The position numbers and the translations under genes were made by a program. This document shows positions 14,406 to 63,122 of a DNA stretch of 64,000 bases, piece after piece. The number at the start of each line of letters is the position of its first letter. The first letter of the stretch is position 1. The stretch is from Candidatus Bathyanammoxibius amoris. GTDB taxonomy: Bacteria; Planctomycetota; Brocadiia; Brocadiales; Bathyanammoxibiaceae. The stretch covers positions 109,541-173,540 of the forward strand of contig JAMXCW010000002.1 in the NCBI GenBank assembly GCA_024451685.1, in the 5' to 3' direction. The notes under the pieces are model-generated. The model ran no database searches. It had not been told where the DNA came from and was given only the letters and a program-made list of their open reading frames with translations.

Positions 14406-14461
14406 ACTCAAGATGAGAAACAGGGTTTACAGGCATCCTAATACCTCTATGGAATCCAGAT

Positions 14462-17856: not shown

Positions 17857-17867
17857 ATCAACAAATC

Positions 17868-17917: not shown

Positions 17918-17931
17918 AGAAAACTACACTT

Positions 17932-20415: not shown

Positions 20416-20416
20416 T

Positions 20417-21655: not shown

Positions 21656-21657
21656 GG

Positions 21658-47711: not shown

Positions 47712-47886
47712 CACCATTCCTCCCCAGGCCCAAGGCCCATTTCCCATATTATCTAAGAATTATCCGGCCAAAATGGGGTCCAAACTCGACCTTTACCCCT
47801 TCATAAACTACGTAATATATCAATATTTGCCATTTTTTAAAGACAAAAATAGTGAGAAAACCATAAAAAAAGGACACCGTTTCAGA

Positions 47887-48100
47887 AAATCCATCATAAT
47901 TCACCACCTGCCAGAAACTCCGTCACATTAAGCAACAAACGGCCGTTATTCGCCTTATTCCAATTGTCATAAAGGCGGCGCCCCGGTGTGCTTGTAGTGC
48001 CGTCGTCAGCCGGTGAACTATCAGACAGGGCCGCAATCCTGCCCCCGCCCAGCCTGGAGGTGGCAAGTATTATGTTGAGTCCCGTCTGCCACGCCCTTCT
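47887..48100 (-). pseudogene. Orphan 3' fragment of a paralog of the 62214-63122 gene (left copy of a 214-bp direct repeat)
   Basis: Nucleotides 47887-48100 match 62207-62420 with only about half a dozen mismatches by eye. The encoded peptide ...LNIILATSRLGGGRIAALSDSSPADDGTTSTPGRRLYDNWNKANNGRLLLNVTEFLAGGE is the C-terminus of the 302-aa protein. Nothing upstream is homologous. Confidence 0.85.
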
Positions 48101-48294
48101 TATGCTAAAATTTAATTTGCCTCGCTCTATCCCAATTTGCATGATTTTAGACCTCTTTTACCCACCTGAAATTTGTTGTCAGTATAATTACGAATCCTAC
48201 ACTAAAATAATTTATGTACACTTATTTTGATTGAGGTTACGTCAGCAATAGCGGTAATCTTGGTCAGAGTACAATTTGTTGGGTCTAAAGGACC

Positions 48295-49590
48295 TTAAGA
48301 AGCTGCCGTTGCGCCCCTTAGGAATTTTAAAGAGAGCCCGACAACACCCGAATCCCCTACAATCTCACGATAGGTCTTGGTGCCTGAGAGGAAGTCTGTC
48401 AATACGTTTAACAGGACCCTGTCTTTAGCCGCGACCCTGAGCGCGCCGGGCATCGTACCGTATTTCTCCCCAAGTATGGTCATCTGCCTTACCGTACGGC
48501 CGTAGGGGAGGTCCTTTACTATGTGTGAAAAGGCTGTATAGTACTCTTTCAGGGCCCGGTGGGATATTCCAACCTTTAACATCACCTCTGCCGCCTTTAT
48601 CCCGGTCTCGCAGGCGGAGTTGATACCGTTGCCTTTGTAGGCCCTGACAAGCCCGGAGGTGTCTCCTACCGTGACATACCTGTCTCCAAAACTGTTTTGC
48701 GCAGGCTCCAGAGGGATGGGCAACGGCCGGGACACCAGCTTCTCATCTTCCCTGACGACATCCGCCGGAACCAGTTCCCTTACCTCCGGCAGGGAGAGGA
48801 ACCGTTCCAGGGACTCTTCAGTCACGGCAGGCCCTGCCACGTTAACGATAAGGTCGGTAAGTTTTGGGGTGACCACACCGAACTCTATGTCATCGAGGGT
48901 GGTAGGCAAGAACACATGTAAATAGTCCTCACATTCCTTTAAATACTCCGGGTCGGCGGGGATCTTGGTCACAACAGAGAACAGCGCCTTGGGAGTCACA
49001 TAGGGTGTGGCCTGTTCCAGAAGGTTGGCTGTCTCTGCGTCCAGCCCAAAGGCGCCTACCAGGACGTCTCCCTTTGTCGCTCCCTTTGCCCCCTTCAGGT
49101 CACTTTCTACTGCAATACCGTCAGGATAGAATTTTATGTCCTTTACCCTCCCCGGGATAACCCTTACACCCAGCTCCTTGGCCTTGCCCAACAGGTAGCG
49201 GTCAATGGCCACGTTGTGTCCCACAAAGGAGAGTCTTCCTCCCAGATTAAGCTTGATCTTGGCATCGCCTGAGTGGAGATAATACCCGGCTACCTTCCTC
49301 TGGATGGCCTCACAGGGAAAGGTTACTCCCAAGACCTCTTCCAGGGTCTCCTTGAGGGGCGGGGACAGAACTCCTACCCTCTTAATACAGTCTTCGTTGA
49401 ACTTCATTCCCTCATATATGATGACGTTTATGTCCCTGCCCAGCTTCTTGCCCATCATCTTCAGGGTGATGGCGCAACTTGAGCCGGCAGGGCCGCCCCC
49501 AATAATGATTGCAGTCTGACCGTCCTCCAGAGGACCCAGGGAGTGACTCACTCTTGCTACGTTTGGATGGTAGTTATCGGAAATGGACAT
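48295..49590 (-). CDS. FAD-dependent oxidoreductase (geranylgeranyl-reductase-like family)
   Basis: AIIIGGGPAGSSCA is a dinucleotide-binding motif near the N-terminus, with GD..G later in the sequence. The start is moved to ATG 49590. Confidence 0.75.
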   Translation of the reverse strand: MSISDNYHPNVARVSHSLGPLEDGQTAIIIGGGPAGSSCAITLKMMGKKLGRDINVIIYEGMKFNEDCIKRVGVLSPPLKETLEEVLGVTFPCEAIQRKVAGYYLHSGDAKIKLNLGGRLSFVGHNVAIDRYLLGKAKELGVRVIPGRVKDIKFYPDGIAVESDLKGAKGATKGDVLVGAFGLDAETANLLEQATPYVTPKALFSVVTKIPADPEYLKECEDYLHVFLPTTLDDIEFGVVTPKLTDLIVNVAGPAVTEESLERFLSLPEVRELVPADVVREDEKLVSRPLPIPLEPAQNSFGDRYVTVGDTSGLVRAYKGNGINSACETGIKAAEVMLKVGISHRALKEYYTAFSHIVKDLPYGRTVRQMTILGEKYGTMPGALRVAAKDRVLLNVLTDFLSGTKTYREIVGDSGVVGLSLKFLRGATAAS

Positions 49591-49839
49591 GTTATTGCGA
49601 TGTCCTTGCTGCAAACTCTCAGGAGGTAGGCTGTTAGCGGAATTAAATCTTAATTGTACAGAGCAAGTCATAAGCCCTGTTAGCAAGTTCGGTCATACGG
49701 GTATCATCATAGGCGCACCGCCGGCCCCTGGATAGAAACTACCACAACGCCAACCAGTAGGACGAAGAGTGTGGCCACATCTGTGGCGGAGAGTATCACA
49801 GCTTTTGTTCTGTTATTTACTAATATCACAGCACGACCC

Positions 49840-50469
49840 TTATTGGACAGGGAAGGTCATGCTTATACCTCCCTTTAGCTCTCCAAGCTTGTAGTTTTCC
49901 ATGTAACTGCCAGTTATGTCTTTCCCGTCACCTGTGGGGCTGTTCGAGGGGTCGCCGTGACACTTTAGGCATTGCTCATTCATGTAGAGGGGGTGGAAGT
50001 AGCGGTAAACTATCTCCTTTGGCCTCTCGTCTACCCTGCTGTATTCTCCAAAACCTGCGTCAGCTCGAAGTCCCTGCCCCTTGAATTTACTGATTTGGAC
50101 CTGCTCCCATTCATCAGCCAGGTTATCCGGGTTTCTGATGCCATACTCGTCTTTCCCTACATCAACGAACTTGATCCTAACTCCTGACCTTTTTGTAAAG
50201 TCCTTGCTAATGGTTATGGCGAAGTTGACGGGGTTAATGCCCTTGTAGCTGTAAGGTTCATCTTCGGGGACAGGCATGCCGAGTTTTGCATTGTGCGTGT
50301 CAATAACATCCATATTCTCGGCTATCAGAACGCTTGAAACGGTCAACATGTTTATAATATGTTTGGCTATTTTGTTGAAGTCATAAACCTGTGCAAAACA
50401 GTCTCCGACAGGAAATATTGTCAGAGTATACATTAACACTACAACTGCGATTTTCTGTAGGGATTTCAT
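49840..50469 (-). CDS. Secreted monoheme c-type protein, DUF3365 (Tll0287-like) family, paralog 1
   Basis: There is a signal peptide and a single CLKCHGDP heme motif in the context YRYFHPLYMNEQCLKCHGDPSNSPTGDGKD.TG. The ATG at 50469 overlaps the upstream stop (ATGA). Confidence 0.7.
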   Translation of the reverse strand: MKSLQKIAVVVLMYTLTIFPVGDCFAQVYDFNKIAKHIINMLTVSSVLIAENMDVIDTHNAKLGMPVPEDEPYSYKGINPVNFAITISKDFTKRSGVRIKFVDVGKDEYGIRNPDNLADEWEQVQISKFKGQGLRADAGFGEYSRVDERPKEIVYRYFHPLYMNEQCLKCHGDPSNSPTGDGKDITGSYMENYKLGELKGGISMTFPVQ

Positions 50470-51140
50470 TTCCGTTCTCCCTCCTCTTCCTTGGCCAGCC
50501 ATGTTTCATCCACAGGGAACGCAAGGCTTATGGCACCACGAAGTTCTCCCAGCTTGTAGTCTTCCATCTCAAAGCCAGTCAAGTCTTTACCGTCCCCAGT
50601 GGGGCTTGCTGCAGGGTCACCATGACATTTTAGGCAACGGTCCTCTATGTACAGGGGGTATATATAGCGGTAGACCATCTTGTTTAGCTCCGCACCGCCC
50701 ACCAGCTCTATCTCTCCGTAGCCTACCCCCTTGGGGTATCTTACCTTAGAAAATTTCTCCAGTTGCTTGTTCTCCCACTTGTCCGGTTTATTGTACATAT
50801 TCCTTGGGCCGCATTTACCCTTTCCATTCGAGACGAATTTTGTCGATATCCCAGTCATCCTGGCAAACTCTATCGCTATCAAGGTGGCAAATCCCTCGGG
50901 ATTAATCCCCTTGTAGCTAGTGAGTTCACCTTCGGGGATTGGTTCTCCAACCTTTGCGTTGTGGGTATTTATCACCTCGAAGTTATCCGCAATAAAGTCT
51001 GTCGTCGCGTTCATCATGTTTACGATGGAGCTTGACACCCTTTCGTAGTCATATACTTGAGCCCTGCCGTCTTCGGCAAAGAAAAGGCTCAGTGCCGTGA
51101 AGGCTAATACGAACTTAATTTTCCTCACTGCATCTTTCAT
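50466..51140 (-). CDS. Secreted monoheme c-type protein, DUF3365 (Tll0287-like) family, paralog 2
   Basis: The signal peptide is MKDAVRKIKFVLAFTALSLFFA. The heme context is YRYIYPLYIEDRCLKCHGDPAASPTGDGKDLTG. A GGAGG RBS precedes ATG 51140. The ORF is colinear with paralog 1. Confidence 0.7.
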   Translation of the reverse strand: MKDAVRKIKFVLAFTALSLFFAEDGRAQVYDYERVSSSIVNMMNATTDFIADNFEVINTHNAKVGEPIPEGELTSYKGINPEGFATLIAIEFARMTGISTKFVSNGKGKCGPRNMYNKPDKWENKQLEKFSKVRYPKGVGYGEIELVGGAELNKMVYRYIYPLYIEDRCLKCHGDPAASPTGDGKDLTGFEMEDYKLGELRGAISLAFPVDETWLAKEEEGERK

Positions 51141-51372
51141 GGCATGTCCTCCGTCTGCCTTAATGAGTATTTTGCTGTGTGGCTTCCAAGACCATCCCAG
51201 CCGCCTTCTCCATGCCCTCTTGTGAATGCTGTTTTGAGCCCCGATTCTCCCGGCATCTTTCTTGCAATGTGGGTCTTGATACACCCCGGTCTTACTACAA
51301 AAAGCATCTTATAAAATACTAACGGACCACAAATAAATCCGTAGACTACTACTGTTCCCGTTTCTGAAAGAA

Positions 51373-51744
51373 CTAATCTGCAGGAATCTCCAGGCTCATA
51401 GGTCCACCTTGGAGACTACCCGAACCCTCCAGCTTGGCATGCGCCTTTACCTCTCCGTTAGTAAGGATCTCTACTCTGGTGTCACGCTCCACCCTGACCT
51501 CCATCACCGTTTCTGACAAATTTACCCCGATGTTCGCAGGCTCCGTAGTTATCTCCATGCCACTCAAACGAATAAAGGGCAAAAACCAGAGCTTCATCTT
51601 AACCTCGGGCAGTTTTATCTTGATCCCGGGGAGGGTGATTGACACCTTTCCACCGGGGTTAATCTTTAGCTCCGTGGGCTGAATGTCTATTGCACTTTTC
51701 ACATCCAATAAAGTAGTAGCGTCAGTTTCGCCCCTAAGTGGCAT
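51373..51744 (-). CDS. Hypothetical 123-aa protein (beta-rich, no signal peptide)
   Basis: A clean ORF with an AAAGGAGG RBS upstream of ATG 51744. I recognise no family. Confidence 0.5.
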   Translation of the reverse strand: MPLRGETDATTLLDVKSAIDIQPTELKINPGGKVSITLPGIKIKLPEVKMKLWFLPFIRLSGMEITTEPANIGVNLSETVMEVRVERDTRVEILTNGEVKAHAKLEGSGSLQGGPMSLEIPAD

Positions 51745-52051: not shown

Positions 52052-53665
52052 CTATTTCTCCTCCAGGGCCTTGAGCCTTCTGAGCCTATTGGCCTCATCC
52101 TGGATACGAGCCAGTGAACCAATCATGTGCGACCAGCCATACCACCAGGAATAATCCTGCTGGGCATGGGCTGTACCCTTATAACCCTTGAGCTTGTACC
52201 AGAACCACATTTCCGCGTACTCCCTCTCTATGGCACTGGGAGTGCCGGGTCTGGTGATGAAGACACTATAGACCCCAAGAATGGGGCCTATTACAGGGAC
52301 ACGCCCCTCCAGATCCTTGAAGGCCTTGTAGACACCCATCCCTAACTTATCCGGGCCCAGGGCATCGGCCAGTACGTCTCCCATAGGGAAGACAGGCCTG
52401 TCTTTAGGAGCAGGGTTAAGCAGGCCCTCAGCAACGACCTGATCAAGTATCAGCTGGGCTTCGTCCTGCTTCTTGAAACACAGGAACATGTACTGATCCA
52501 TGTTTTCCAGCCACAGTCGCGCAAAGCGGCTGCTGTGACACCTGCCGCACATCTCTATCCACAGCTCCCGCTTCTGGAGATTCTCCGGGGAATATACCTC
52601 CAGTTTCGCATCCAAAGGAGGGATATTAATCCCGTAGGGGTAGTCCTTGAGGCTGGACTTATACTCTACCTCCTTCGGGGGTACGGTGCCCATGCGCCAG
52701 ATGCCCTTGCTAATGGGATTAATCGTCCATTTATTACCCCCCATATACATGTGGCAATACTGACAGGTGGGACTCTTATAGTCCTTTCCAGGGATGATGT
52801 CCCCCAGGGGCTTGTCCCAGGGCCAATGTTCACCCTCCAGCTCATAAATAGTGCCCATCTTAGAATGGCTGTAGGTCTCCCAATCGGGATGGTCAGGTCC
52901 CATGTGACAACTCATGCAGGCCTCCGGTCTCCTGCCCTCAGCGGCTGAGAAGCTGTGCCTGGTGTGGCATGTGTCACACCTGGCCATTTCCTCATGACAC
53001 ATGTCACAGCCTATCAGAGAGGCGCCTTCTCCCTGACGATATGACTCTATATACCAGGGCACCACCACGTTGGCCTCCCAGCTCTGGAGATGGCTGGGCC
53101 GACCGTACTTTCTCTCAGAGGCATACTCCTCTGCCTGCTTCAAGTGGCACTCACCACAGGCATTATCCACGGTGGGCATCTGCAGCACATCGTGGCTCTT
53201 GCCGTGGCAACCAGAACAGTCTACCTCTTTTATCTCCCGACCCAGGCGTTTTTCTATCTCCGCGGTCTTTGCGGCGAAATATTCATTCCTCTTGGGCTGG
53301 GCATGGGTGGAGGCCTTCCAGGAGTTGACTATCCCAGGTGTGATATCGGCGTGGCACTCCACACACTGATCGGGTTGAAATTTTTTCATCAACTCTGGAA
53401 ACATCTTGATGTCTGGCCGTACGTAGTGTCTTAAAGGATTCATATACATGTAGAGAGGTATGGGCTTGTAGGCATCGGCAAAGGGACCATCCCCCTTTTC
53501 CAGGTACACTGCCTCTGCGAACATTTTCTGAAGCTCTGGTGTGGGATAGGCCCAGGACTTCTTGGCTACCTTCTCCTCAGGGGCCTTTTCGTCGGCGGCT
53601 CGGGCCTGACCCGGCCCTAGTAAAATAACTGCCGTGGCCAACGCTATGATAAATGGTAATCTCAT
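52052..53665 (-). CDS. Octaheme cytochrome c, hydroxylamine oxidoreductase (HAO)-like
   Basis: The signal peptide is MRLPFIIALATAVILLGPGQARA. There are eight CxxCH motifs: CVECH, CSGCH, CGECH, CDMCH, CDTCH, CMSCH, CQYCH and CGRCH. Their spacing, including the CDMCHEEMARCDTCH doublet, is typical of the HAO family. Confidence 0.88.
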   Translation of the reverse strand: MRLPFIIALATAVILLGPGQARAADEKAPEEKVAKKSWAYPTPELQKMFAEAVYLEKGDGPFADAYKPIPLYMYMNPLRHYVRPDIKMFPELMKKFQPDQCVECHADITPGIVNSWKASTHAQPKRNEYFAAKTAEIEKRLGREIKEVDCSGCHGKSHDVLQMPTVDNACGECHLKQAEEYASERKYGRPSHLQSWEANVVVPWYIESYRQGEGASLIGCDMCHEEMARCDTCHTRHSFSAAEGRRPEACMSCHMGPDHPDWETYSHSKMGTIYELEGEHWPWDKPLGDIIPGKDYKSPTCQYCHMYMGGNKWTINPISKGIWRMGTVPPKEVEYKSSLKDYPYGINIPPLDAKLEVYSPENLQKRELWIEMCGRCHSSRFARLWLENMDQYMFLCFKKQDEAQLILDQVVAEGLLNPAPKDRPVFPMGDVLADALGPDKLGMGVYKAFKDLEGRVPVIGPILGVYSVFITRPGTPSAIEREYAEMWFWYKLKGYKGTAHAQQDYSWWYGWSHMIGSLARIQDEANRLRRLKALEEK

Positions 53666-53772
53666 AAACGCCTCCCTCCTTAACAAAGTTTCTACTACTG
53701 CTTAACCTCCCTGGGTACTGGAGGTCTTGGCCTGAAGGTTTCGTAGTCTCTTGTAACACTCTCGCTTGGGTT

Positions 53773-55290
53773 TTAAGGAATAGCTTCTCCTTCCTGCTGT
53801 GGGGACTTTTCATCCAGGGGCATGGCCTCCTGCCCCACAGCCTCCTGGGCTGGGGGGAAGGCCTCTCCTTCAACGATTACCAGTTTAGTTTCCCGGATGA
53901 TCTCGTCTTCCGAGAAAGAAGTAGCTTCTCCTTCCTGCTGTGGGGACTTTTCATCCAGGGGCATGGCCTCCTGTCCCGCAGCCTCCTGGGCCGGGGGTGG
54001 GGCCTCTCCTTCAACGATTACCAGTTTAGTTTCCCGGATAATCTCGTCTTCCGAGAAAGAAGTAGCTTCTCCTTCCTGCTGTGGGGACTTTTCATCCAGG
54101 GGCACGGCCTCCTGTCCCACCGCCTCCTGGACCGGGGAGAAGGCCTCTCCTTCAACGATTACCAATTTAGTTTCCCGGATGATCTCATCTTCCGAGAGCG
54201 GGGATGTCCCGGCAGACCCCCCAAATACAGGCACCTGCACGCTAACAGGTATTACCTCTTCCTGAGAGGTTTCTTTCTGCGGTAAGGCCTGTGTCACCGG
54301 GCCTTCGGATTGAATCTTGGCGAGGGGTTCAGCCCTCAGCTCGTGGTGTCTGGCCATATGGCATTTACCGCAGACGTCATAGCTAAAACCTAGTTTGCTG
54401 AGCCTACCAGCCTCGTCCACCTTTCCCTGACTCATAAAATAGACGTAAAGCTGTCCGGGCCCGTGACAGGCCTCACAGGTGACACCTTCCTCTACATATT
54501 CGCCGGTCTCTTCATCGTACCCGGTGGTATGGCACTCGTAGCACTTCTTTCTGTACTCCTCATCACCTTGTATAAAGTCTTTTGCTTTTTTGACCCGTTC
54601 CATGGTGACAAACTTGTTGTCCTTCCAGCGGTCGATGTGCCAGGTGGTGAGGCCCTTGTGACACCTGACGCAGGCAGTGCTGCCCACGTAGACCGCCTTC
54701 TCGCCGGTTATGCTGTAATACTTGTAATCTGAGGCTTCCTGGCCCTCCTTGGGGGAAAGTTCGGCCAATCCCTTCCACAACTCCAGCACGGCATCAGCGG
54801 TGTCTATCCTGCCAATCATTTCTTTCCTGCTGGCATATAAGTGCTCATGGGCCCCCTCCAGTCGGAGGGATTCGCCCTGGCCACCGTGGCAGACCGTACA
54901 GCCGTAAATGTCGTAAGGTAAATAATCAAACGTCTTGGGGTGCAGTTCTTCTAATTTGTCCACATCTACATGACAGGTCATACACCTGTCCACCTTCTCT
55001 CCGTTTTCCCCATCCTTCCAACGTCCGCTGCCTTTAAGGAGTAACTGTTTTACCCCCACGGGGGGGTTTTTTAGGGCCGCAATCCTCTGTTTCAGCTTTT
55101 CTGCCATGACAGGATCCCCCCATTTAGGGTCGGACCACCTCTCCAGCTCGTGCTCTAGCCTGTCCACCTGTTCGGCATAAGCGACCTTCTGATAGCCCAC
55201 CCACTCGGGGTAGACTTCCCTGACAACCCAGAGGACAAGCAGGCCCAGCAAGACCACTGATAAGACAACAAAAGGTATCCTCCACAACAT
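53773..55290 (-). CDS. Membrane-anchored hexaheme cytochrome c with repetitive acidic C-terminal extension
   Basis: There is an N-terminal TM helix and six CxxCH motifs (CMTCH, CTVCH, CVRCH, CYECH, CEACH, CGKCH). The C-terminal roughly 140 aa are three 47-aa repeats. Confidence 0.85.
   Translation of the reverse strand: MLWRIPFVVLSVVLLGLLVLWVVREVYPEWVGYQKVAYAEQVDRLEHELERWSDPKWGDPVMAEKLKQRIAALKNPPVGVKQLLLKGSGRWKDGENGEKVDRCMTCHVDVDKLEELHPKTFDYLPYDIYGCTVCHGGQGESLRLEGAHEHLYASRKEMIGRIDTADAVLELWKGLAELSPKEGQEASDYKYYSITGEKAVYVGSTACVRCHKGLTTWHIDRWKDNKFVTMERVKKAKDFIQGDEEYRKKCYECHTTGYDEETGEYVEEGVTCEACHGPGQLYVYFMSQGKVDEAGRLSKLGFSYDVCGKCHMARHHELRAEPLAKIQSEGPVTQALPQKETSQEEVIPVSVQVPVFGGSAGTSPLSEDEIIRETKLVIVEGEAFSPVQEAVGQEAVPLDEKSPQQEGEATSFSEDEIIRETKLVIVEGEAPPPAQEAAGQEAMPLDEKSPQQEGEATSFSEDEIIRETKLVIVEGEAFPPAQEAVGQEAMPLDEKSPQQEGEAIP
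53776..54195 (-). repeat. In-frame tandem repeat, 3 x 141 bp (47 aa), inside the hexaheme cytochrome gene
   Basis: The unit is SEDEIIRETKLVIVEGEA(F/P)(S/P)P(V/A)QEA(V/A)GQEA(V/M)PLDEKSPQQEGEATSF. The unit boundaries are 54195/54054/53913/53776. The DNA copies are nearly identical. Confidence 0.9.
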
Positions 55291-55301
55291 TCCACTCTAC
55301 C

Positions 55302-56078
55302 TCATATGTTAAACCAGGGGGTTACCAGTACGTATTTGACATTAAAGACGACCCTCAATAATATCTTTATGGGCACAAATAGCATGGCGGCAAATAGATT
55401 CATTGTAATGAAGTATCGTATAAGACCCAGTTTGAAGAAAAACTTAGGGAAGAGGATGGCCGGGAGTATAAGCATCAGAGCACCGTAACATACCAAAAAG
55501 GCTATGCCCGCAGGAAGGGGGAAACTGCCCAGCGCCTGCTCCATGGGTTTGATAACATCCCAGCTTTCCCCCGGCCAATAAAAGTTCCAGAATGGGCCCC
55601 GGAAATACTGACCCACTATCACCAAGACAAACCACATAGTAAAGCCCCCAATGAAACAGGCCGAGGCAAACTTTCTCGTCCTCACGTTATAGCGGCCCAC
55701 CCCCTTTATGGGGTCAGGGTCGATGTAGGGTATGAGAGCCAGGCCAACAAGGATGACAGTAGGCAGTACCACTCCTGCCATCCAGGGGTCAAAATACACC
55801 AGCAGTTCCTGCAGGCCCACGAAATACCAGGGTGCCTTGGCCAACTTGGGGGTCTCATTAGGATTGGCCAGCTCCTCCAGAGGGGCATTTTGTAGCAGGC
55901 TCCAGGCCACGACCACTATGGAGGCCGCCAGCACGGCTATGAGTTCCCTCTTTACCAGGTGGGGCCAGGTGTCTACCTTTTCTTCTTTCGGATAGACATC
56001 ACGCTGCCTGAGCAGGAGGTCCTCTCTTACCACGGTGATGAGTCTAATCTTTTCTTTGTTTTCTGTTTTCTCTACCAT
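55302..56078 (-). CDS. Cytochrome b C-terminal half (subunit IV / PetD-like) with extra C-terminal TM helices
   Basis: The Qo-loop region ETPKLAKAPWYFVGLQELL aligns to the PEWYF region of subunit IV. There are about six or seven predicted TM helices. Confidence 0.85.
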   Translation of the reverse strand: MVEKTENKEKIRLITVVREDLLLRQRDVYPKEEKVDTWPHLVKRELIAVLAASIVVVAWSLLQNAPLEELANPNETPKLAKAPWYFVGLQELLVYFDPWMAGVVLPTVILVGLALIPYIDPDPIKGVGRYNVRTRKFASACFIGGFTMWFVLVIVGQYFRGPFWNFYWPGESWDVIKPMEQALGSFPLPAGIAFLVCYGALMLILPAILFPKFFFKLGLIRYFITMNLFAAMLFVPIKILLRVVFNVKYVLVTPWFNI

Positions 56079-56090
56079 TTGTCTAATACA

Positions 56091-56825
56091 CTATAAAGGC
56101 CTGGAAATGCCTCCGGACTTTCTGATTCTCCAGAAGTGAACGGCCATTAATCCCACTGCGACCCCTGGCAGGCCCACACAGTGGGCAAAGTAAAAGCGAA
56201 TCAGGGTGGGCTGATCTATTGCGGTGCCGCCCAATATAATAAAATGGATATCCTGTTCAGGGCCAAGGATGCTAAAAGGGCCTTTAGCGCCCAAGACGGG
56301 GGTGTTTTCCCCCATTGTAGCTCCTACTGTCACTGCCCAGAAAGACAACTGGTCCCAGGGCAGTAAATAGCCCGAAAAACTAAGCAATAAGGTTATCACA
56401 AGCAGGCCCACCCCGATGACCCAGTTAAACTCTCTAGGTGGTTTATAAGAGCTGGTCAAAAATACCCTTAGCATGTGCAGAGGCACAATGAGGACCATCA
56501 GGTGAGCTGCCCAGCGGTGGAGGTTCCTCTGAAAGGAGCCGAAGGGTACTATATAGTCTATGTCCTTCATGCTGGAATAGGCCTTATCCACATGGGGCAC
56601 ATAATAAAGCATCAGAAACGCGCCGGTTATGGCCGTGACTATAAAGAAGAAGAGAGCGAACCCACCCAGGCAGAAGGTGTAAGTAAACTTTATGCCGTCC
56701 TTGCTCACCCGGGCTGGTTGGATATGAAGGACAAAATTCGATATCACACGGAAGACCCGGTGGAGGTGACTATCAGAAGTCCCGGTCCTGAATACAGACC
56801 TCCACATCTGGGTGAATATATTCAT
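56091..56825 (-). CDS. Cytochrome b6-type N-terminal half (PetB-like)
   Basis: The heme ligand pairs are HRWAAHLMVLIVPLH (H-x13-H) and HCVGLPGVAVGLMAVH (H-x14-H). The FCLGG motif corresponds to the heme ci Cys of b6. Confidence 0.9.
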   Translation of the reverse strand: MNIFTQMWRSVFRTGTSDSHLHRVFRVISNFVLHIQPARVSKDGIKFTYTFCLGGFALFFFIVTAITGAFLMLYYVPHVDKAYSSMKDIDYIVPFGSFQRNLHRWAAHLMVLIVPLHMLRVFLTSSYKPPREFNWVIGVGLLVITLLLSFSGYLLPWDQLSFWAVTVGATMGENTPVLGAKGPFSILGPEQDIHFIILGGTAIDQPTLIRFYFAHCVGLPGVAVGLMAVHFWRIRKSGGISRPL

Positions 56826-56848
56826 CTCTCTCCTCTTAAAAAGAATCG

Positions 56849-57370
56849 CTAGGCACGCAGGAAGTAGTCTATATTCACTTTCTTGCCCTCATCAACCTCC
56901 AACCGTCCATCTTTGGCCACGGTAATCTCCAGGCGCTCCAAGGGTTTGGGGGCCGGGCCAGCAAAGTTTACCCCGTTCTTGTAAAAACGGCTGCCATGGC
57001 AGGGGCATTTGAAGATCTGCTGGCCTTCATACCATACCGGCTGGCAACCTAGATGGGTACATATGGCCAGGAGGGCATAAAAGCCCTTATCTCCCCGTAT
57101 TATCCAGACCTTTCGGCCGGTCACCAGGTTCACCGAGCCCTTTGCGTACTGCTCAGGCCTCTTGGCCTTAAAAATCTTAGAGGGCTCGTAAGTGGCCCTG
57201 GGGTAGAGGAACCGTACCAGCGTTGCCCCTGTAACACTGAGTATGACAAGAAGTAGCCCCCAGCCACTCCACCAGAGCGCAGTCCACATAGCCTGTCGTC
57301 TGGCGGGCTTCTTAACCCCCGTGGGTATAGCTTCCTCTGCATTTGTCTTAGACTTAACCATCACATACAA
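56849..57370 (-). CDS. Rieske [2Fe-2S] protein
   Basis: The cluster motifs CTHLGC and CPCHGS are present. The N-terminal RR-containing TM anchor is KKPARRQAMWTALWWSGWGLLLVIL. Confidence 0.9.
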   Translation of the reverse strand: MYVMVKSKTNAEEAIPTGVKKPARRQAMWTALWWSGWGLLLVILSVTGATLVRFLYPRATYEPSKIFKAKRPEQYAKGSVNLVTGRKVWIIRGDKGFYALLAICTHLGCQPVWYEGQQIFKCPCHGSRFYKNGVNFAGPAPKPLERLEITVAKDGRLEVDEGKKVNIDYFLRA

Positions 57371-57375
57371 CCTCT

Positions 57376-59316
57376 CTACAAGATTTCCTCAAATTTCACC
57401 ATTGAGATGGCATCAACGGGACAGCGATAGCTACACAGTCCGCAGTGGATGCAAAGCTCCTCATCCTGTGTCAGCCCTACCCAGGGCCCATCACCTCCCG
57501 CACCATCCCATAGGGAAAACTCCTTCACCACTGACCCATCCAGATAGGCCATAGCGAGAGCCCTGGTGGGGCAGACGTCCACACAACCTCCGCAGAGGAT
57601 ACACTGCATCTCCTGCCTTTGCCCTATTACCGGGCTGACATTGCAGTTCAAGCACCGCCCGGCCTGGTCCTGGGCCTCGTACTCTGAGTAAGGTATCTCT
57701 GAGGCCTCCCATCCCTTGAGCCTTTCTTCGGGAGGCCGCAGGGTAGGATACTGCTTTGTCAGGGAGAGTCCGTAGTAGAACCTCTCAAATCTCCAGGTAA
57801 TGGGTATTGCCTCCATGTGCTCCTGTTTGCTCAGCCCCAGGGAGCCAACGCCTCCCAGATATTCATGCATGGACTGGGCGGCCAGCTGACCCGAAGCTAC
57901 TGCATTTATTACCAGACCCGGGCCCAGGATGTCGCCGCAGGCATAGACTCCGGGCTTGGAGGTGGCCAGGGTAACGGGGTCTACCTTTAGCATCTTCCTC
58001 TGGTTTAGCTCAAAACCCTGACTGCCGTCCAGGAAACTCATATCAGGGGCCTGACCCACAGCCAGGAGGATGTTGTCGCATTCTATGATGCGTTCTGTAC
58101 CCGGGACAAAGGTTGGGTTAAACCGGCCCTCTGAGTCATAAACATCGATTACATTTATCACCTCCAGACCCGCGACCCGGCCATCCTGACCCACCACCAC
58201 CCTCTTGGGGCCCCAGGAGGTGTTCATGATGATTCCTTCCTCACTAGCATCCACAACGTCGCCTATCCAGGCAGGCATCTCCTCCTTGAGGTTATCAGGT
58301 CTACAGCCCTTCATGGCCTCCAGGCATACAAGGTGCACCTCGCTGGTGGAGTCAATTCTCATTGCCGCCCTGGCTACATCGGTAGCCACGCATCCCCCTC
58401 CTATTACTACTACCTTCTCACCCAGAGTAAACTTTCGGTCAGTTGCTATGTCCCCTACGTCCATCAGGAAGTCCAACCCTGATAAAACCCCTGGCGTCTC
58501 CACTCCCGGGACGGGTACACCCCTCCCCTTCTGGAGACCCACCGCGATAAGAACTGCGCCAAACTCCTCCTTGAGCTGGTCAAGGCTGAAGTCCTTTCCG
58601 CAGGCCTGATTAAGTTTCAGCTTTATGGGCAAAGAGAGTATGGACTCCACGTCCTTCCTCACTGCCTCTCTATCCAATCTGAAGAAGGGTAGCGCATTGG
58701 CAGGCATACCACCAGGATTACTGCCGGCCTCATAGAGCGTTACCTCGTAACCCATGAGTATCAGGTCATGGGCGGCCGAAAGGCCGGCGGGCCCCGCACC
58801 AATTATCGCCATCCGAGCCGGGACGAGCTTGGGAGACTCCCTCTTCACCACTGCAGGCTTCACCTTTCCCATCTTCTGCCTTATCCAACGATAAACCTCC
58901 CCAGTACTCAGGTGGTTGTTTTTTACGGCAAAATCCTTCAGGCCCCTTATGCTTACCGCCTCGTCCACCTTGCCCCTCTGGCAGGCCGACTCACAGGGCG
59001 CACCACAGACCTTAGCGCAGACGGCAACAAAGGGATTATTCCTCCTGGCAATCAGATAGGCCTCCTGGTACCTACCTTCATCAATGGCCATCACGTAGCC
59101 CCTTGCATTGGTGCCAGACGGACAGGTGCGGCGACAGGGCACATTCTCACGAAACCATTCCTTGTCCACAGAAGTGGCTACCGGTGTGTCAGTCAGCACA
59201 GATTGCCGTGCGGCCTCCAGATGCCTGGCCCTCATCTGGGAGAGCTCATCTAGAGATATTGAGAAGTCGCGCTCCTTGAAGCTTATTGTTATAGAATTAG
59301 CAGACTCTCCGCTCAT
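57376..59316 (-). CDS. NAD(P)H-dependent FAD oxidoreductase (glutamate synthase small subunit GltD/NfnB-like) fused to a C-terminal 2x[4Fe-4S] ferredoxin domain
   Basis: The N-terminal FeS region is CPSGTNARGY...CAKVCGAPCESAC. The FAD motif is IIGAGPAGLSAAHDL and the NAD(P) motif is VVVIGGGCVATDVA. The C-terminal clusters are CLNCN...CILCGGCVDVCP and CIHCGLCSYRCP. There is no signal peptide or TM helix. Confidence 0.88.
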   Translation of the reverse strand: MSGESANSITISFKERDFSISLDELSQMRARHLEAARQSVLTDTPVATSVDKEWFRENVPCRRTCPSGTNARGYVMAIDEGRYQEAYLIARRNNPFVAVCAKVCGAPCESACQRGKVDEAVSIRGLKDFAVKNNHLSTGEVYRWIRQKMGKVKPAVVKRESPKLVPARMAIIGAGPAGLSAAHDLILMGYEVTLYEAGSNPGGMPANALPFFRLDREAVRKDVESILSLPIKLKLNQACGKDFSLDQLKEEFGAVLIAVGLQKGRGVPVPGVETPGVLSGLDFLMDVGDIATDRKFTLGEKVVVIGGGCVATDVARAAMRIDSTSEVHLVCLEAMKGCRPDNLKEEMPAWIGDVVDASEEGIIMNTSWGPKRVVVGQDGRVAGLEVINVIDVYDSEGRFNPTFVPGTERIIECDNILLAVGQAPDMSFLDGSQGFELNQRKMLKVDPVTLATSKPGVYACGDILGPGLVINAVASGQLAAQSMHEYLGGVGSLGLSKQEHMEAIPITWRFERFYYGLSLTKQYPTLRPPEERLKGWEASEIPYSEYEAQDQAGRCLNCNVSPVIGQRQEMQCILCGGCVDVCPTRALAMAYLDGSVVKEFSLWDGAGGDGPWVGLTQDEELCIHCGLCSYRCPVDAISMVKFEEIL

Positions 59317-59522
59317 ATCTTTCCTCTATTAGAAAAAAGAGACTGTTACCATCCACCATCTTTAGAGAAAGATCAGGACACGCTACTTTGCAGGATGGGG
59401 TAGACGTTGAAGGACCGGCGGCTACTGCCATACCGCTGGCAATGCCGGATTGCTGAAGGTAGCTTCGCCTACTAGTCCTCATTATCCTTCCTGCTATTTT
59501 AAGGTGAGGTTTTTGTTACAAT
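59275..59522 (-). repeat. Leader/5'-CDS repeat unit, copy 1 (functional copy, upstream of and overlapping the first 42 nt of the oxidoreductase gene)
   Basis: It aligns by eye along its whole length with 60160-60417, and its distal 100 nt align with 60063-60159. Confidence 0.85.
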
Positions 59523-60057
59523 CTTACCGGCCATACTGTGTGGCAAGCTTATTTGTGCGTGCCACCAGCTTCGCCTCCCCAGAGGCTACATGTGCTCTAT
59601 GCCTCCGGGTGGACATGGACCGACCCGGTATCTTACATGCACACCGCTTCAACTCCTTAAACCCGAACCGTACACGCTTTACTACTATGCGCCGTTTCGA
59701 CGGGCCTAGAACTTTACAGAAGCGGCGTCCTTAAGAATCTCCTTGTCCAGAGACAGGTCCGCCACCAGACGTTTAAGACGGGTGTTCTCATACTCAAGCT
59801 CCTTCAGACGCTTGCCCTGATCTACCTTCAGGCCACCGTATTCCCTGCGCCACCGGTAATACGTTTGCTCCGCGATTCCGAGCTTGCGTGCAATATGTCC
59901 AACCGTCTTTCCCTGAGATAGCTCCATCTTTGCTTCTTCAAGTCTGTGGATTATCTGGTCTACTGTATATCTCTTGCGACTCACAACTCCCCACTTCTTC
60001 TGATCCAATTTAACTCCAAAGACTGACATTAAAACTGGACCGATTTAAAGGAGGCAG
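59523..60057 (-). mobile_element. IS3-family insertion sequence remnant (orfA intact-looking, orfB truncated after about 60 codons)
   Basis: The OrfA 59706-60029 reads ...SRKRYTVDQIIHRLEEAKMELSQGKTVGHIARKLGIAEQTYYRWRREYGGLKVDQGKRLKELEYENTRLKRLVADLSLDKEILK, an HTH plus leucine zipper typical of IS3 OrfA. The downstream -1 frame reads CKIPGRSMSTRRHRAHVASGEAKLVARTNKLATQYGR (like an OrfB N-terminus) and stops at the junction with repeat copy 1. No DDE domain is present. Confidence 0.8.
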
Positions 60058-60062
60058 ATCGC

Positions 60063-60159
60063 TACCATACCGCAGGCAATGCCGAACTGCTGAAGGTAGC
60101 TTCGCCTACTAGCCCTCATTATCACTCCTGCCATTTTAAGGTGAGGTTCTTGTTATGAT
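60063..60159 (-). repeat. Leader repeat unit, copy 2 (distal part only; proximal part replaced by the IS3 remnant)
   Basis: ctaccataccgcaggcaatgccgaactgctgaaggtagcttcgcctactagccctcattatcactcctgccattttaaggtgaggttcttgttatgatc aligns with 59424-59522. Confidence 0.85.
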
Positions 60160-60417
60160 CTTGAAATTAGTGTTACAGAGTTAGCACAGGCCCTTTGTCT
60201 ATATCTTCCTTGTTAGAAAATGAGACTGTTACCATTTCACTATCTTTGAGAAGGTTAGAACATGTTAGTTTAAAGTTAGAATACGTTACTTTGTGGGAGG
60301 GGGTAGGCGTAGACGTTGAAAAACCACGGGTTACTGCCATACCACAGGCAATACCAGACCATCGAAGGTAGCTTCGCCTACTAGCCCTCATTATCATTCC
60401 TGCCATTTTAAGGTGTT
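60160..60417 (-). repeat. Leader/5'-CDS repeat unit, copy 3 (degenerate; start codon mutated to ATA)
   Basis: On the minus strand, GATATAGACAAAGGGCCTGTGCTAACTCTGTAACACTAATTTCAAG aligns with GATATGAGCGGAGAGTCTGCTAATTCTATAACAATAAGCTTCAAG of the real gene start. The rest aligns with copy 1, apart from an insertion of about 20 nt. Confidence 0.85.
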
Positions 60418-61170
60418 TTTGTCGTGATATACCGTAAAACAGCCTAGTTTTACGACAATCAGCGGCAGTTATACACCATTTGTCGTAACAACCAACATGT
60501 GATATGTCGGTGAGATTTTATCGCAACTATACCACACAAAAAGGTGTTTGCAAGAACTTTTTAAGAAAATTTTAGGGAGGGGAAACTTGCTTACCAACTT
60601 AAAGAGGATCGTAATAGTAGCCCTCTTTGTTATCAATTTATGTTCGAATAACTTATTCTAATCAAACAGTAACATAGTACGATGCAGGATAACAACCCAA
60701 TGCGTACGGCAATCAGGCACTGCTAAGACTTTGAATTGGCCATTAATCGGGCTTTGCCGATATAAGCCGTGTCAATGGCAAACCTCAAACCTGCGCTCGT
60801 ACAAAATTCTGTCAGCAGTTTTATCCATAAGTTCATTCCCACATGTCAGACACTCTCTGCTGGACATACAAATCTTGTATATGTAATTGAAAGCTTGCGA
60901 GATTAAATATGGGGCCACAAAAACATGTAGTTGAAATAAAACGGGAATCTAAGATTACTATATTTTTCTCCTACCCGGCTTTTTTTTGACAAACACTTTT
61001 TTGTGGTAAACTTCTGACCAGTTTGATAACCTCTTGCTTATGGCCTTTAAGAGATAGGCGCATAGATGGGCAATGGAAGGCCTGATGGTGTGCCGCCAAT
61101 CCTTGGCACACTTATTTTTGTGTTCTCTGCACTGAGCTTCTTAACTCACCGGCAGGTGTGAGGTGCGACG

Positions 61171-62205
61171 ATGCAGGACCGGACAGGGCCTGGTAGATAT
61201 TTGACCCTTTTCACAATAACGGCAATTATCCTGTTTTGCCTTCAGGATGCCCAGGCACAGGATGCACAGAAGTCTTTCAACACCGGAAAAGCCCTACTCA
61301 AGCAGCGAAGGTATGAGGATGCACTTATCCACTTTAACAAGACGCTGGAGATTGAACCAGGGTTTGCCACAGCATGGAACGAAAAAGGCACGGTCTTTCT
61401 CAAATTGGGCAGGTACTGGGAGGCGATTGAATGCTTTGACAAGGCACTGAAGATTAACCTAAGCTACGCCGAGGCATGGCATAACAAGGGCAAGGGCTTT
61501 GACAACTTGGGCAGGTATCAGAGGGGCATTAAATGCTACAATAAGGCATTGAAGATTAACCCACGCTACGCCGAGGCATGGTACAGCAAGGGAGCGTCCC
61601 TGTTCGCGCTGGGCTACAAGAACGGCGCAACCCAGTACGCGGCACGCTTGTATCAGGAGGCCTTTGAATGTAGCGACAAGGCGCTGGAGATGGACCCAAA
61701 GCTTGCCGAGGGATGGCTCAACAGGGGCTTTGCCGGCGTCGAACTAGGCAGCTATAAAGAAGGCATTGGAGGCGACAACAAGGCACTTAAGACTGATCCA
61801 AGGTACGCCGAGGCATGGTACGGCCAGTGCATGGAGCTGGGTAGCCAGGGCAGTTATCAGGATGCCATTGACTACTACGACAAGGCACTGGAGATAAACC
61901 CAAAGGACGCTGGAGCATGGTATAAAAAGGGCGTGGCACTAGGTAACCTGCGCAGGTATCAAGAAGCTATTGAATGCTATGACAAAATACTGGAGATTGA
62001 CCCAAAGAATACATACGCGTGGAGCAATAAGGGCTGGGTCCTGGCCAGGATGGGCAGACCGCCTGAAAAAGAATTTGCCTGCTACGAAAAAGCATTAGAG
62101 ATAGACCCAAAGCATGTCCCTGCGTGGAGCACAAACGGCGCACCCCTGTCAGAACTGCCTCGATATATAGAGGTAGAAAAGGCCGCCATGGGTGTGAAGA
62201 GATAG
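61171..62205 (+). CDS. Secreted TPR-repeat protein
   Basis: A signal-like N-terminus is followed by about eight or nine canonical 34-aa TPR units (YxEAIECYDKALEINPKxAxAW repeated). Confidence 0.8.
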   Translation: MQDRTGPGRYLTLFTITAIILFCLQDAQAQDAQKSFNTGKALLKQRRYEDALIHFNKTLEIEPGFATAWNEKGTVFLKLGRYWEAIECFDKALKINLSYAEAWHNKGKGFDNLGRYQRGIKCYNKALKINPRYAEAWYSKGASLFALGYKNGATQYAARLYQEAFECSDKALEMDPKLAEGWLNRGFAGVELGSYKEGIGGDNKALKTDPRYAEAWYGQCMELGSQGSYQDAIDYYDKALEINPKDAGAWYKKGVALGNLRRYQEAIECYDKILEIDPKNTYAWSNKGWVLARMGRPPEKEFACYEKALEIDPKHVPAWSTNGAPLSELPRYIEVEKAAMGVKR

Positions 62206-62206
62206 A

Positions 62207-62420
62207 GAATCCATCAGAATTCACCACCTGCCAGAAACTCCGTCACATTAAGCAACAAACGGCCGTTATTCGCCTTATTCCAATTGTCATAAAGGCGGCG
62301 CCCCGGTGTGCTTGTGGTGCCGTCGTCAGCCGGTGAACTGTCGGACAGGGCCGCAATCCTGCCCCCGCCCAGCCTGGAGGTGGCAAGTATTATGTTGAGT
62401 TCCGTCTGCCGCGCCCCTTT
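62207..62420 (-). repeat. Right copy of the 214-bp direct repeat (3' end of the intact 62214-63122 gene)
   Basis: See 47887-48100. The two copies have the same orientation and lie 14.3 kb apart. Confidence 0.85.
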
Positions 62421-63122
62421 TAACCATATATGTCCTCTCGCGGCGGGGCTTGCCGGGGATTTCACTATACTGATTGTCCCAAAACCATGAAGATATATCA
62501 TCTCTACCACACCAAAGGGGCCGCGCAGGACCGCCACGTCATCAGGACTGAAATTGGCGGTGTAATGGCCGCCCCTTGTCCACGAATTAATCTCATTCCC
62601 GGTCTGGAAGTGTATCCCGGTGTGCGACTGAAGCTTATTAAAGATGCCGGTAGAGTCTATACCGTCGTTGTTCCTGTCGGAATTGAAGTGGTCCGCAATG
62701 AGAAATAGCCCGCCCCCGTTTTTCACAAACGAGATGACGGCGGCCCGCTCGGATACGGCGAGGTCACTGTTGGGCTCGCACAATATCAGCACGTCGTACC
62801 CCGAGAGGTCTTGCGGGTTTTCCGGGTTACCGTAGCTTAGCGGCTCTTTCGTGCTCTCCACCCCGTACCTGCCGGTCTTATAAAGTTCATAGGCCCACGA
62901 GGATATCCCGCCCGACCAGTCCCCGGGCGAAGAGGGGTCCGTGGGTTTCGGCACCGACATGTCGTCGTCAATTATCCAGTCGGCATGCCTGCCGGAACTC
63001 TGTGCGTGGCCGGCATCAAACAGTACCCTGTAATACTTCCCGCCCGCGCCTGCCGTCATACATACAGGCAGGCAAACGACAATAATTAGTAGAAATATTC
63101 GCAGGAATTTCTTGGCAGACAT
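62214..63122 (-). CDS. Hypothetical secreted protein
   Basis: The 302-aa ORF has a signal peptide (MSAKKFLRIFLLIIVVCLPVCMTAGA). The central motif GGGLFLIADHFNSDRNNDG suggests a GATase1/ThuA-like fold, but I cannot assign a family. Confidence 0.6.
   Translation of the reverse strand: MSAKKFLRIFLLIIVVCLPVCMTAGAGGKYYRVLFDAGHAQSSGRHADWIIDDDMSVPKPTDPSSPGDWSGGISSWAYELYKTGRYGVESTKEPLSYGNPENPQDLSGYDVLILCEPNSDLAVSERAAVISFVKNGGGLFLIADHFNSDRNNDGIDSTGIFNKLQSHTGIHFQTGNEINSWTRGGHYTANFSPDDVAVLRGPFGVVEMIYLHGFGTISIVKSPASPAARGHIWLKGARQTELNIILATSRLGGGRIAALSDSSPADDGTTSTPGRRLYDNWNKANNGRLLLNVTEFLAGGEF

Follow-up and report, generated by a model that had tools for sequence, protein, structure and literature searches.

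A variant of the anammox R/b-3-type Rieske/cytochrome b operon, with a conserved additional gene, in Candidatus Bathyanammoxibius amoris

Two questions about anammox bacteria are open: by which route they turn nitrite into nitric oxide (NO), and where their NAD(P)H comes from, given a quinol pool some 250 mV too positive for it. Two Rieske/cytochrome b (R/b) complexes of Kuenenia, R/b-2 (Kustd1480-1485) and R/b-3 (Kuste4569-4574), are standing candidates for both tasks, their activity being undemonstrated. Both comprise a b6-like cytochrome b, a five-helix subunit IV, a multiheme protein replacing cytochrome f and a putative cytoplasmic NAD(P) oxidoreductase, and an octaheme protein resembling hydroxylamine oxidoreductase (HAO) is present in R/b-3 only (PMC12954380; PMC9325076). 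The stretch analysed here, called the window, covers 64,000 nucleotides of Candidatus Bathyanammoxibius amoris (contig JAMXCW010000002.1 of assembly GCA_024451685.1) and contains a cluster of six genes of these same kinds, which raises the question of what such a cluster encodes and what it would do in this host. The six genes are the following:

57376..59316, minus strand: FAD/NAD(P) oxidoreductase of the NfnB/GltD family, 646 amino acids (open reading frame and Pfam)
56849..57370, minus strand: Rieske [2Fe-2S] protein, 173 amino acids, or 170 if the ATG at 57361 is the start (open reading frame and Pfam)
56091..56825, minus strand: b6-type four-helix cytochrome b, 244 amino acids (Pfam and alignment to the Kuenenia sp. 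ortholog)
55302..56078, minus strand: subunit-IV-like membrane protein, 258 amino acids (Pfam and hydropathy)
53773..55290, minus strand: hexaheme cytochrome c with a transmembrane anchor, 505 amino acids (Pfam and CxxCH count)
52052..53686, minus strand: octaheme HAO-like protein, open reading frame of 544 amino acids (Pfam and CxxCH count)

A reading of this DNA made from the letters alone (the sequence-only reading) had described six co-oriented genes with short gaps, and the open reading frames were indeed found at these positions, separated by 5, 23, 12 and 11 nt and then, between the hexaheme and HAO genes, by 107 nt if the latter starts at ATG 53665 or by 86 nt if the upstream TTG is used. 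The ATG, giving a protein of 537 amino acids, is the probable start because an identical database protein (P0001) and the N-termini of relatives use it. The families to which that reading had assigned the six proteins were borne out by Pfam, by the numbers of CxxCH motifs (six and eight) and by hydropathy. In gene order the Pfam domains are Fer4_20 and Pyr_redox_2 with a C-terminal 2x[4Fe-4S] domain, Rieske, Cytochrome_B, Cytochrom_B_C, a cytochrome c554/c7-type domain in the hexaheme and Multi-haem_cyto (HAO family) in the octaheme. In a Kyte-Doolittle scan the oxidoreductase has no hydrophobic segment, the Rieske protein has one, cytochrome b four and subunit IV five to six; the hexaheme shows one anchor at its N-terminus, and the HAO-like protein begins with a signal. 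The six-gene set was found again in at least five other Brocadiales contigs, and also in Kuenenia and Brocadia genomes, and because it recurs in this way a chance juxtaposition of the genes can be discounted.

The window has a G+C content of about 52-53%, far above those of Kuenenia, Brocadia and Scalindua. It agrees with the 52.36% reported for Ca. Bathyanammoxibius amoris, a species from sediment of the Arctic Mid-Ocean Ridge (PMC10060263). The locus is also deposited in ENA (ZHAO22-1_SAMN29179945 scaffold_727), and the 64-kb window contains no rRNA.

When the six proteins were compared with those of an R/b-3 locus of Kuenenia sp. (L005), which encodes in order a Rieske protein, an oxidoreductase, cytochrome b, subunit IV, a 363-residue hexaheme and a 584-residue HAO, six of six found their counterpart. 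The identities are 33% for the oxidoreductase, 37% for the Rieske protein, 58% for cytochrome b, 48% for subunit IV, 47% for the hexaheme and 53% for the HAO. The parallel with R/b-2 and R/b-3 that the sequence-only reading had drawn is correct, with the precision that only R/b-3 includes the octaheme (PMC12954380; PMC9325076). Judged by sequence, the window operon is a variant of the anammox R/b-3-type complex and not a strict ortholog of it. This kind of system has already been described, with its function inferred, and nothing is overturned here; what is new with respect to the known R/b-3 is a variant build with a conserved seventh gene and with a flavoprotein and an HAO that, by the trees described below, are not orthologous to those of Kuenenia.

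The membrane core retains the features expected of a quinol-oxidising complex. Its Rieske protein has the boxes CTHLGC and CPCHGSRF, a conserved twin-arginine (Tat-like) motif and one transmembrane helix. The four heme-b ligands of cytochrome b (H103, H117, H215 and H230) are all conserved with the Kuenenia sp. ortholog, as is Cys52 in the motif FCLGG. By comparison to cyanobacterial b6, this cysteine lies at the attachment position of heme c_n. Moreover, His34 aligns to His43 of Kuste4571, for which a role as ligand of an additional, dimer-interface heme b has been proposed (PMC12954380). The Qo motif of subunit IV reads APWY instead of PEWY, in the window and in the Kuenenia sp. ortholog alike. 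In the Rieske protein the potential-tuning Ser is present and the tuning Tyr is replaced by Phe, which is the same Ser/Phe pair as in Kustd1480; the potentials measured for the Kuenenia Rieske proteins are +303 and +335 mV, the latter being that of Kustd1480 (PMC12954380).

The hexaheme cytochrome has its six CxxCH motifs at positions conserved with the hexahemes of Kuenenia R/b-3 and of Scalindua, and in the searches made here its homologs were recognised in anammox lineages only, Scalindua included. It ends in an acidic, Glu/Pro-rich C-terminal tail of about 175 residues which contains the following repeat:

53775..54197, minus strand: three tandem repeats of 141 nt (47 amino acids), 93-94% identical, in the hexaheme tail (repeat finding)

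The copy number of this repeat should not be relied on: a different assembly of the contig (L001, about 9731-9830) has a scaffold gap of 100 N at this position, and the number of repeats seen in the window may not be real.

The octaheme protein has eight CxxCH motifs and a Sec-type signal ending in AxA, and is 100% identical to a protein from a metagenome-assembled genome (MAG) labelled 'Candidatus Brocadiales bacterium'. The nearest solved structure is 6h5l (E = 5e-175), to which it aligns end to end with no large gaps; this entry, deposited as 'Similar to hydroxylamine oxidoreductase', is presumably the Kustc0458 structure of PMC8042395. Anammox homologs were aligned with nine Tyr-bearing HAOs from proteobacteria, methanotrophs and verrucomicrobia in order to score the heme-cross-linking Tyr, a check which the sequence-only reading had proposed. 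At this column (NPGGFTYxEGW; Y467 of Nitrosomonas HAO) the window protein has Trp514 and no Tyr, and Trp is also found there in all aligned members of three groups, those of HAOr, of kuste4574 and of HAOs fused to a multicopper oxidase. In addition, the protein scores 159 bits against the HDH equivalog model, the cut-off of which is 900. Trp514 at the cross-link column places the octaheme, by prediction, among the reductive (HAOr-like) proteins. It is also predicted to act as a reductase, because purified HAOr, which likewise lacks the cross-link, reduces nitrite to NO and oxidises neither hydroxylamine nor hydrazine (PMC8042395).

The phylogeny is consistent with this assignment. In the trees of this work, all of which are bootstrapped neighbour-joining trees only, the octaheme groups with the Tyr-less HAOr, with kuste4574 and with the multicopper-oxidase-fused set (ingroup 100% bootstrap), so that it falls in the Tyr-less reductive subclade and is not the ortholog of a stand-alone hydroxylamine or hydrazine oxidiser, a possibility that the sequence-only reading had raised. 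Together with three close relatives it forms a clade of its own in 100% of replicates; this clade is joined to the multicopper-oxidase-fused clade in 80% of them, and the HAOr clade is monophyletic without the window protein in 100%. The closest Brocadiaceae relative of the window HAO is the multicopper-oxidase-fused HAO of Kuenenia sp. (838 residues; L002 8996-12517), encoded directly after a gene of the Linocin_M18 encapsulin family. That this fused HAO is kuste4574 was considered and rejected: the Kuenenia sp. copy adjoins the encapsulin gene with no Rieske/cytochrome b genes nearby, and the R/b-3 HAO of Kuenenia sp. is the 584-residue protein P0032.

The relevant passages of Zhao et al. 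(PMC9723696) report Bathyanammoxibiaceae to be without NirS, NirK and HAO2 (HAOr) and to encode one to three 'HAO7' variants with 47-53% identity to Kustc0458; in these passages a Rieske/cytochrome b operon setting of the HAO7 variants is not mentioned. The window HAO is 48-52% identical to the hits of the HAOr clade, in line with the HAO7 range given in those passages.

The oxidoreductase has an N-terminal Fer4_20 domain for two clusters and a C-terminal domain with two CxxCxxCxxxCP motifs and a conserved CxxC pair, and it is collinear end to end with its counterpart in Kuenenia sp. R/b-3, both motifs and the CxxC pair included. As it has neither a signal peptide nor a transmembrane segment it should be placed on the cytoplasmic (n) side of the membrane. 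Its nearest relatives in PDB are NfnA, NfnB and GltD. In the NfnB/GltD family NAD(P)H is bound at a FAD that is fed by iron-sulfur clusters. The sequence-only reading had named a genuine glutamate synthase small subunit as the alternative, and this was ruled against: no gltB-sized open reading frame is present in the 64-kb window, where the longest (1067 amino acids) encodes a molybdopterin enzyme, and the NCBIfam models GltD and gltA give the protein 180-230 bits against cut-offs of 448-483, all hits being sub-threshold. By gene content and score, then, the protein does not appear to be a glutamate synthase small subunit. In an unrooted tree the oxidoreductases of the window lineage form one clade with 100% bootstrap, and over trimmed columns an Ignavibacteriales protein shares 45% identity with that of the window, one of Acidobacteriia 43%, and those of Kuenenia and Brocadia only 35-36%.

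The six genes of the sequence-only reading thus stand as described, but the unit probably reaches one gene further, to position 51373, and includes:

51373..51744, minus strand: conserved orphan gene p123, 123 amino acids (homolog searches and gene context)

In all the oxidoreductase-first clusters examined, namely that of the window, both tandem clusters of the MAG K_2_bin.28, those of L090/L091 and L092/L093 and the divergent one of L094, this gene is the next one after HAO, and the order of all seven genes is conserved in five further contigs. From its context p123 is probably the seventh component of the operon. The predicted protein is all-beta, with no Cys, no signal peptide and no transmembrane segment, and it has no match in Pfam, NCBIfam or PDB, even at E = 10. 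A word-indexed search returned 17 p123 clusters, all the named ones being from Brocadiales MAGs. A search of 1.8 billion representatives with a hidden Markov model gave seven hits, of which six are short (82-120 amino acids) and the weakest has 1,905 amino acids (E = 1e-4); the gene of one short hit, P0261, again sits after the HAO of an oxidoreductase-first cluster. No p123 homolog was found at the Kuenenia R/b-3 locus. An AlphaFold2 model based on a 17-sequence alignment was unusable (pLDDT 38.8). A terminator-like hairpin (51342-51322) follows p123 and none precedes it, in a promoter and terminator scan whose counts equal, and are no better than, those of shuffled sequence.

Relatives of the cluster show how its parts are combined elsewhere. 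The MAG K_2_bin.28 (Brocadiales) carries on L088 two paralogous seven-gene clusters in tandem (4476-12303 and 13914-21728), both ordered oxidoreductase, Rieske, cytochrome b, subunit IV, hexaheme, HAO and p123, and the HAO of the upstream one groups with the hexaheme-linked HAO of Scalindua in 90% of bootstraps. On L014 (4707-9800; Planctomycetes bacterium RIFOXYC2_FULL_41_27) the genes for Rieske, cytochrome b, subunit IV, hexaheme and HAO follow one another. When species-representative genomes were scanned with a cytochrome b profile, at least nine non-Brocadiales loci among the best 80 had an oxidoreductase homolog alongside Rieske/cytochrome b, and in seven of these nine it immediately precedes the gene for the Rieske protein or for cytochrome b. 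Their phyla include Verrucomicrobia, Ignavibacteriales and Chloroflexi, and in the open reading frames inspected the core is followed by a membrane-anchored cytochrome c with two to eight hemes and by no HAO. Moreover, two oxidoreductase homologs from the protein search (one of Acidobacteriia, one unclassified) are followed by Rieske, cytochrome b and multiheme genes, and on L095 a molybdopterin oxidoreductase and an iron-sulfur subunit come after the Rieske/cytochrome b-multiheme cluster. These oxidoreductase-first clusters without HAO (L023, L045, L048-L052, L095 and L096) indicate that the NAD(P)-linked Rieske/cytochrome b core is not specific to anammox. No paper describing the non-anammox clusters was found in a literature coverage that is incomplete, and ten Brink et al. 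2013 may cover them. The simplest reading of these gene contexts is a modular origin, in which a widespread flavoprotein-Rieske/cytochrome b core would have been joined to an anammox-specific hexaheme-HAO module.

What the machine would do can be proposed by adopting a hypothesis already published for Kuste4569-4574 (PMC12954380), namely that the locus encodes one membrane complex of the R/b-3 type which bifurcates the electrons of quinol to NO and NAD(P)H; we consider this reading fairly probable. Menaquinol (about -70 mV) would be oxidised at a Qo site built from cytochrome b, subunit IV and the Rieske head. The high-potential electron would pass from the Rieske cluster to the membrane-anchored hexaheme and on to the secreted, Tyr-less octaheme. 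There, in the anammoxosome lumen or periplasm (p side), nitrite would be reduced to NO (+380 mV), the substrate of hydrazine synthase. The low-potential electron would travel through hemes bL and bH and the heme c_n position, possibly also through an additional interfacial heme b ligated by His34, and would then enter the iron-sulfur chain and the FAD of the NfnB-like subunit to reduce NAD(P)+ (-320 mV). The uphill formation of NAD(P)H would be paid for by the exergonic reduction of nitrite. Gene content and order, cofactor motifs, topology, synteny, homology to R/b-3 and the absence of the Tyr are all observed. What is inferred is that the products form a single complex, which way electrons flow through it, which substrate the octaheme acts on and what part, if any, p123 plays. 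The hydropathy and signals support this reading, as they place the flavoprotein on the n side of the membrane and the two multiheme cytochromes on its p side, and the Rieske Ser, as in the high-potential Kustd1480, is counted in favour of bifurcation. The sequence-only reading had suggested a coupling of quinol oxidation to NAD(P)+ reduction and to an N-oxide or hydroxylamine reaction; its bifurcating part coincides with the published hypothesis, but an oxidation of hydroxylamine is unlikely for an octaheme predicted to be a reductase. If NirS, NirK and HAOr are truly lacking in this host, as Zhao et al. report for the family, the R/b-linked HAO complex would be its best candidate for the nitrite reductase that supplies NO to hydrazine synthase, and the hypothesis would weigh more here than in Kuenenia.

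Several points weigh against this reading. Formation of NO by HAOr in vitro is very slow, and strong reductants drive the reaction on to ammonium (PMC8042395). No enzymatic activity has been reported for any R/b-linked HAO, Kuste4574 included, so that the statement of the sequence-only reading that none had been demonstrated still holds (PMC12485887), and whether R/b complexes have a functional Qi site is unsettled in the literature (PMC12954380). The window HAO clade was joined to that of kuste4574 in 0 of 200 replicates, and the oxidoreductases of the window lineage were exclusively paired with those of Brocadiaceae R/b-3 in 0 of 300; as neither protein is a strict ortholog, the transfer of function from Kuenenia is an analogy. 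The modules also appear separable, because Scalindua has a hexaheme-HAO pair without adjacent Rieske/cytochrome b genes and because the L014 cluster has no oxidoreductase gene, neither next to its Rieske gene on the cytochrome b side nor within the 4.7 kb that precede it. Finally, hzs genes are absent from the 64-kb window.

The same complex might work with its flavoprotein reversed, NAD(P)H being the donor and its electrons going via the iron-sulfur chain into the n-side hemes, from which quinone would be reduced at a Qi-like site or electrons passed across the membrane. The machine would then be a nitrite reductase dependent on both NAD(P)H and quinol, or a route of cyclic or reverse electron flow. 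This would agree with the reversibility of NfnB/GltD-type flavoproteins, with the conservation of the heme c_n Cys, which in b6f belongs to the Qi site, and with the presence of oxidoreductase-first clusters in Acidobacteriia, Verrucomicrobia, Ignavibacteriales and Chloroflexi of heterotroph type, which have no obvious need for uphill NAD(P)H. Nevertheless, autotrophic anammox bacteria require a source of low-potential reductant, and the high Rieske potentials measured suit the energetics of bifurcation (PMC12954380); nothing in the sequence sets the direction, and we regard the reversed flow as unlikely. We are equally doubtful that the octaheme performs another reductive N-oxide chemistry (NO to hydroxylamine, hydroxylamine to ammonium, or the six-electron ammonification of nitrite) and serves detoxification or ammonium supply in place of NO production. 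In vitro, Tyr-less HAOr does act faster on NO and hydroxylamine than on nitrite, and with methyl viologen it forms ammonium; epsilonproteobacterial Tyr-less HAOs reduce nitrite and hydroxylamine (PMC8042395); the window HAO belongs to a subclade distinct from HAOr and kuste4574, and its specificity may differ accordingly. However, the active site of HAOr has been argued to be tuned for the release of NO (PMC8042395), and the lineage is reported to have no other NO-forming nitrite reductase, yet to possess an NO-requiring hydrazine synthase (PMC10060263; PMC9723696).

A different assembly can also be imagined, in which one transcript serves two machines, a Rieske/cytochrome b-oxidoreductase complex and a separate membrane-tethered hexaheme-HAO fed by soluble carriers, the synteny being due to co-regulation and not to physical assembly. 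The Scalindua pair without Rieske/cytochrome b nearby would fit this, as would the widest gap of the operon (107 nt) before the HAO gene and the AlphaFold3 models of the R/b complexes, none of which was reasonable with Kuste4574 docked (PMC12954380). On the other hand, all six subunits of Kuenenia R/b-3 co-migrate in blue-native analysis (PMC12954380). Moreover, with no other cytochrome f/c1 equivalent the hexaheme is the sole candidate acceptor for the Rieske electron, and its gene, 11 nt from that of subunit IV, always stands between subunit IV and HAO. We therefore judge two separate machines to be very improbable and keep the single bifurcating complex as the preferred reading.

Outside the operon, the neighbouring features are the following:

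49840..51284, minus strand: two tandem Tll0287-like genes, heme-c PAS-like with one CxxCH each (Pfam)
48295..49686, minus strand: 463-residue FAD protein of the geranylgeranyl-reductase family, beyond the Tll0287-like genes
59394..59526, minus strand: non-coding repeat of about 130 nt, the proximal copy, about 80 nt upstream of the oxidoreductase ATG
60062-60162 and 60283-60422, minus strand: further copies of the same repeat

The Tll0287-like proteins are possibly associated sensors or carriers, and a single gene of this type is found at the matching position in the relative L003. The A-type clusters of L088 and L090 have, on their upstream side, a FAD protein related to the product of 48295-49686. 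The repeat of about 130 nt has the core CACCTTAAAATGGCAGGA...GATAATGAGGGCTAGTAGGCGAAGC, and two copies with 81% identity precede the orthologous operon of MAG K_2_bin.28 (L003 3450-3582 and 3705-3837). RNAalifold showed no compensatory pairs that would point to a structured RNA, Rfam gave nothing at gathering score within 47-64 kb of the window, and no exact match to the repeat was found in JGI metagenome contigs; the element could be a regulatory site, a leader or a small repeat element. An IS3-family orfA (HTH_Tnp_1, 107 amino acids) and, after it, a truncated orfB of about 60 codons occupy 59530-60029; this insertion sequence (IS) remnant lies between copies 2 and 3 of the repeat, and a 5'UTR-like segment at 60206-60252 resembles the stretch before the oxidoreductase ATG. 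The arrangement suggests a local duplication around the IS remnant just upstream of the operon. On a larger scale, a direct repeat of 219 nt (96% identical; 47884-48102 and 62204-62422, 14.3 kb apart), which corresponds to the 3' end of a secreted-protein gene (62214-63122), flanks the cluster, the Tll0287-like genes, the FAD oxidoreductase, the IS remnant and a TPR gene; the pair could mark a past insertion or rearrangement, or could be an assembly artefact. The remaining genes of the window are housekeeping genes, a TtrA-like molybdoenzyme and rubrerythrin. At 42133-46289 on the minus strand, a gene for a TtrB/ArrB-like four-cluster iron-sulfur protein (329 amino acids) overlaps the start of the gene for the 1067-residue molybdopterin oxidoreductase. 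This enzyme is most TtrA-like (510 bits, below the cut-off of 1750), and its identification as NXR was rejected, the match to NxrA being marginal.

If the HAO is the physiological nitrite reductase here, this locus would offer the cleanest natural test of the long-proposed machine that bifurcates quinol electrons to NAD(P)H and NO, since in a lineage where the R/b-linked HAO may be the sole reductive HAO the NirS/HAOr redundancy that confounds experiments in Kuenenia is removed. Handles for structure, biochemistry and evolution are given by the extra gene after the HAO, the anammox-specific hexaheme-HAO module and the core that is widespread outside anammox; for comparison there are, in addition, the non-orthologous flavoprotein and HAO, the tandem duplication in K_2_bin.28 and the possibly non-redundant host. 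A broader proposal, which we put forward tentatively and regard as somewhat unlikely to hold as a whole, joins two statements. One is that the Rieske/cytochrome b-tethered HAO would be the physiological NO-forming nitrite reductase of this deep-branching family, with p123 as a new seventh subunit or assembly factor. The other is that the oxidoreductase-first NfnB-like flavoprotein, Rieske, cytochrome b, subunit IV and multiheme would form a widespread and essentially undescribed class of respiratory complexes (Acidobacteriia, Verrucomicrobia, Ignavibacteriales, Chloroflexi) with interchangeable p-side modules, to which the anammox lineage would have docked the hexaheme-HAO.

Among known systems R/b-3 is matched in six of six subunit types with collinear domain architectures, and the b-heme His, the heme c_n Cys, the equivalent of His43 and the APWY motif are common to the window and Kuenenia sp. 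The differences are the order of the first two genes (oxidoreductase-Rieske in the window, Rieske-oxidoreductase in Kuenenia and Brocadia), the acidic repeat tail of about 175 residues, which the Kuenenia hexaheme lacks, the presence of p123, of which no homolog was found at the Kuenenia locus, and Phe in place of the tuning Tyr in the window Rieske protein; moreover, by neighbour-joining only, the oxidoreductase and HAO are not strict orthologs of Kuste4570 and Kuste4574. R/b-2, which was compared by description only, is alike in combining a Rieske/cytochrome b6-type core with an NAD(P) oxidoreductase and a multiheme and in the Ser/Phe pair of Kustd1480 (PMC12954380), but it has no HAO-like octaheme and a different gene order (PMC12954380; PMC9325076).

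With cytochrome b6f and bc1 the window complex shares the split into b6 and subunit IV, a Rieske protein with a Tat-type N-terminus, the four b-heme His and the heme c_n Cys. As the sequence-only reading held, it is nevertheless not a canonical bc1 or b6f: there is no gene for a monoheme cytochrome f/c1 and the hexaheme stands in that place, subunit IV has about five helices and APWY for PEWY, and an n-side flavoprotein and 14 p-side c hemes are added. HAOr (Kustc0458/Kustc0457), the sole biochemically characterised relative of the octaheme and a nitrite-to-NO reductase (PMC8042395), shares with the window protein all eight heme motifs and the Trp of the cross-link column; HAOr is, however, soluble with a diheme partner, whereas the window octaheme lies outside the HAOr clade and has as partner a membrane-anchored hexaheme in a Rieske/cytochrome b operon. 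The octaheme differs from the oxidative P460 enzymes (HAO, HOX and HDH) in lacking the heme-cross-linking Tyr. NfnAB and GltD have the Fer4_20 and FAD/NAD(P) fold in common with the window oxidoreductase, which differs from them in its additional C-terminal 2x[4Fe-4S] domain, in its sub-equivalog scores, in having neither an NfnA nor a GltB partner gene in the window and in that the genomic partner of oxidoreductases of its type is always a Rieske/cytochrome b core.

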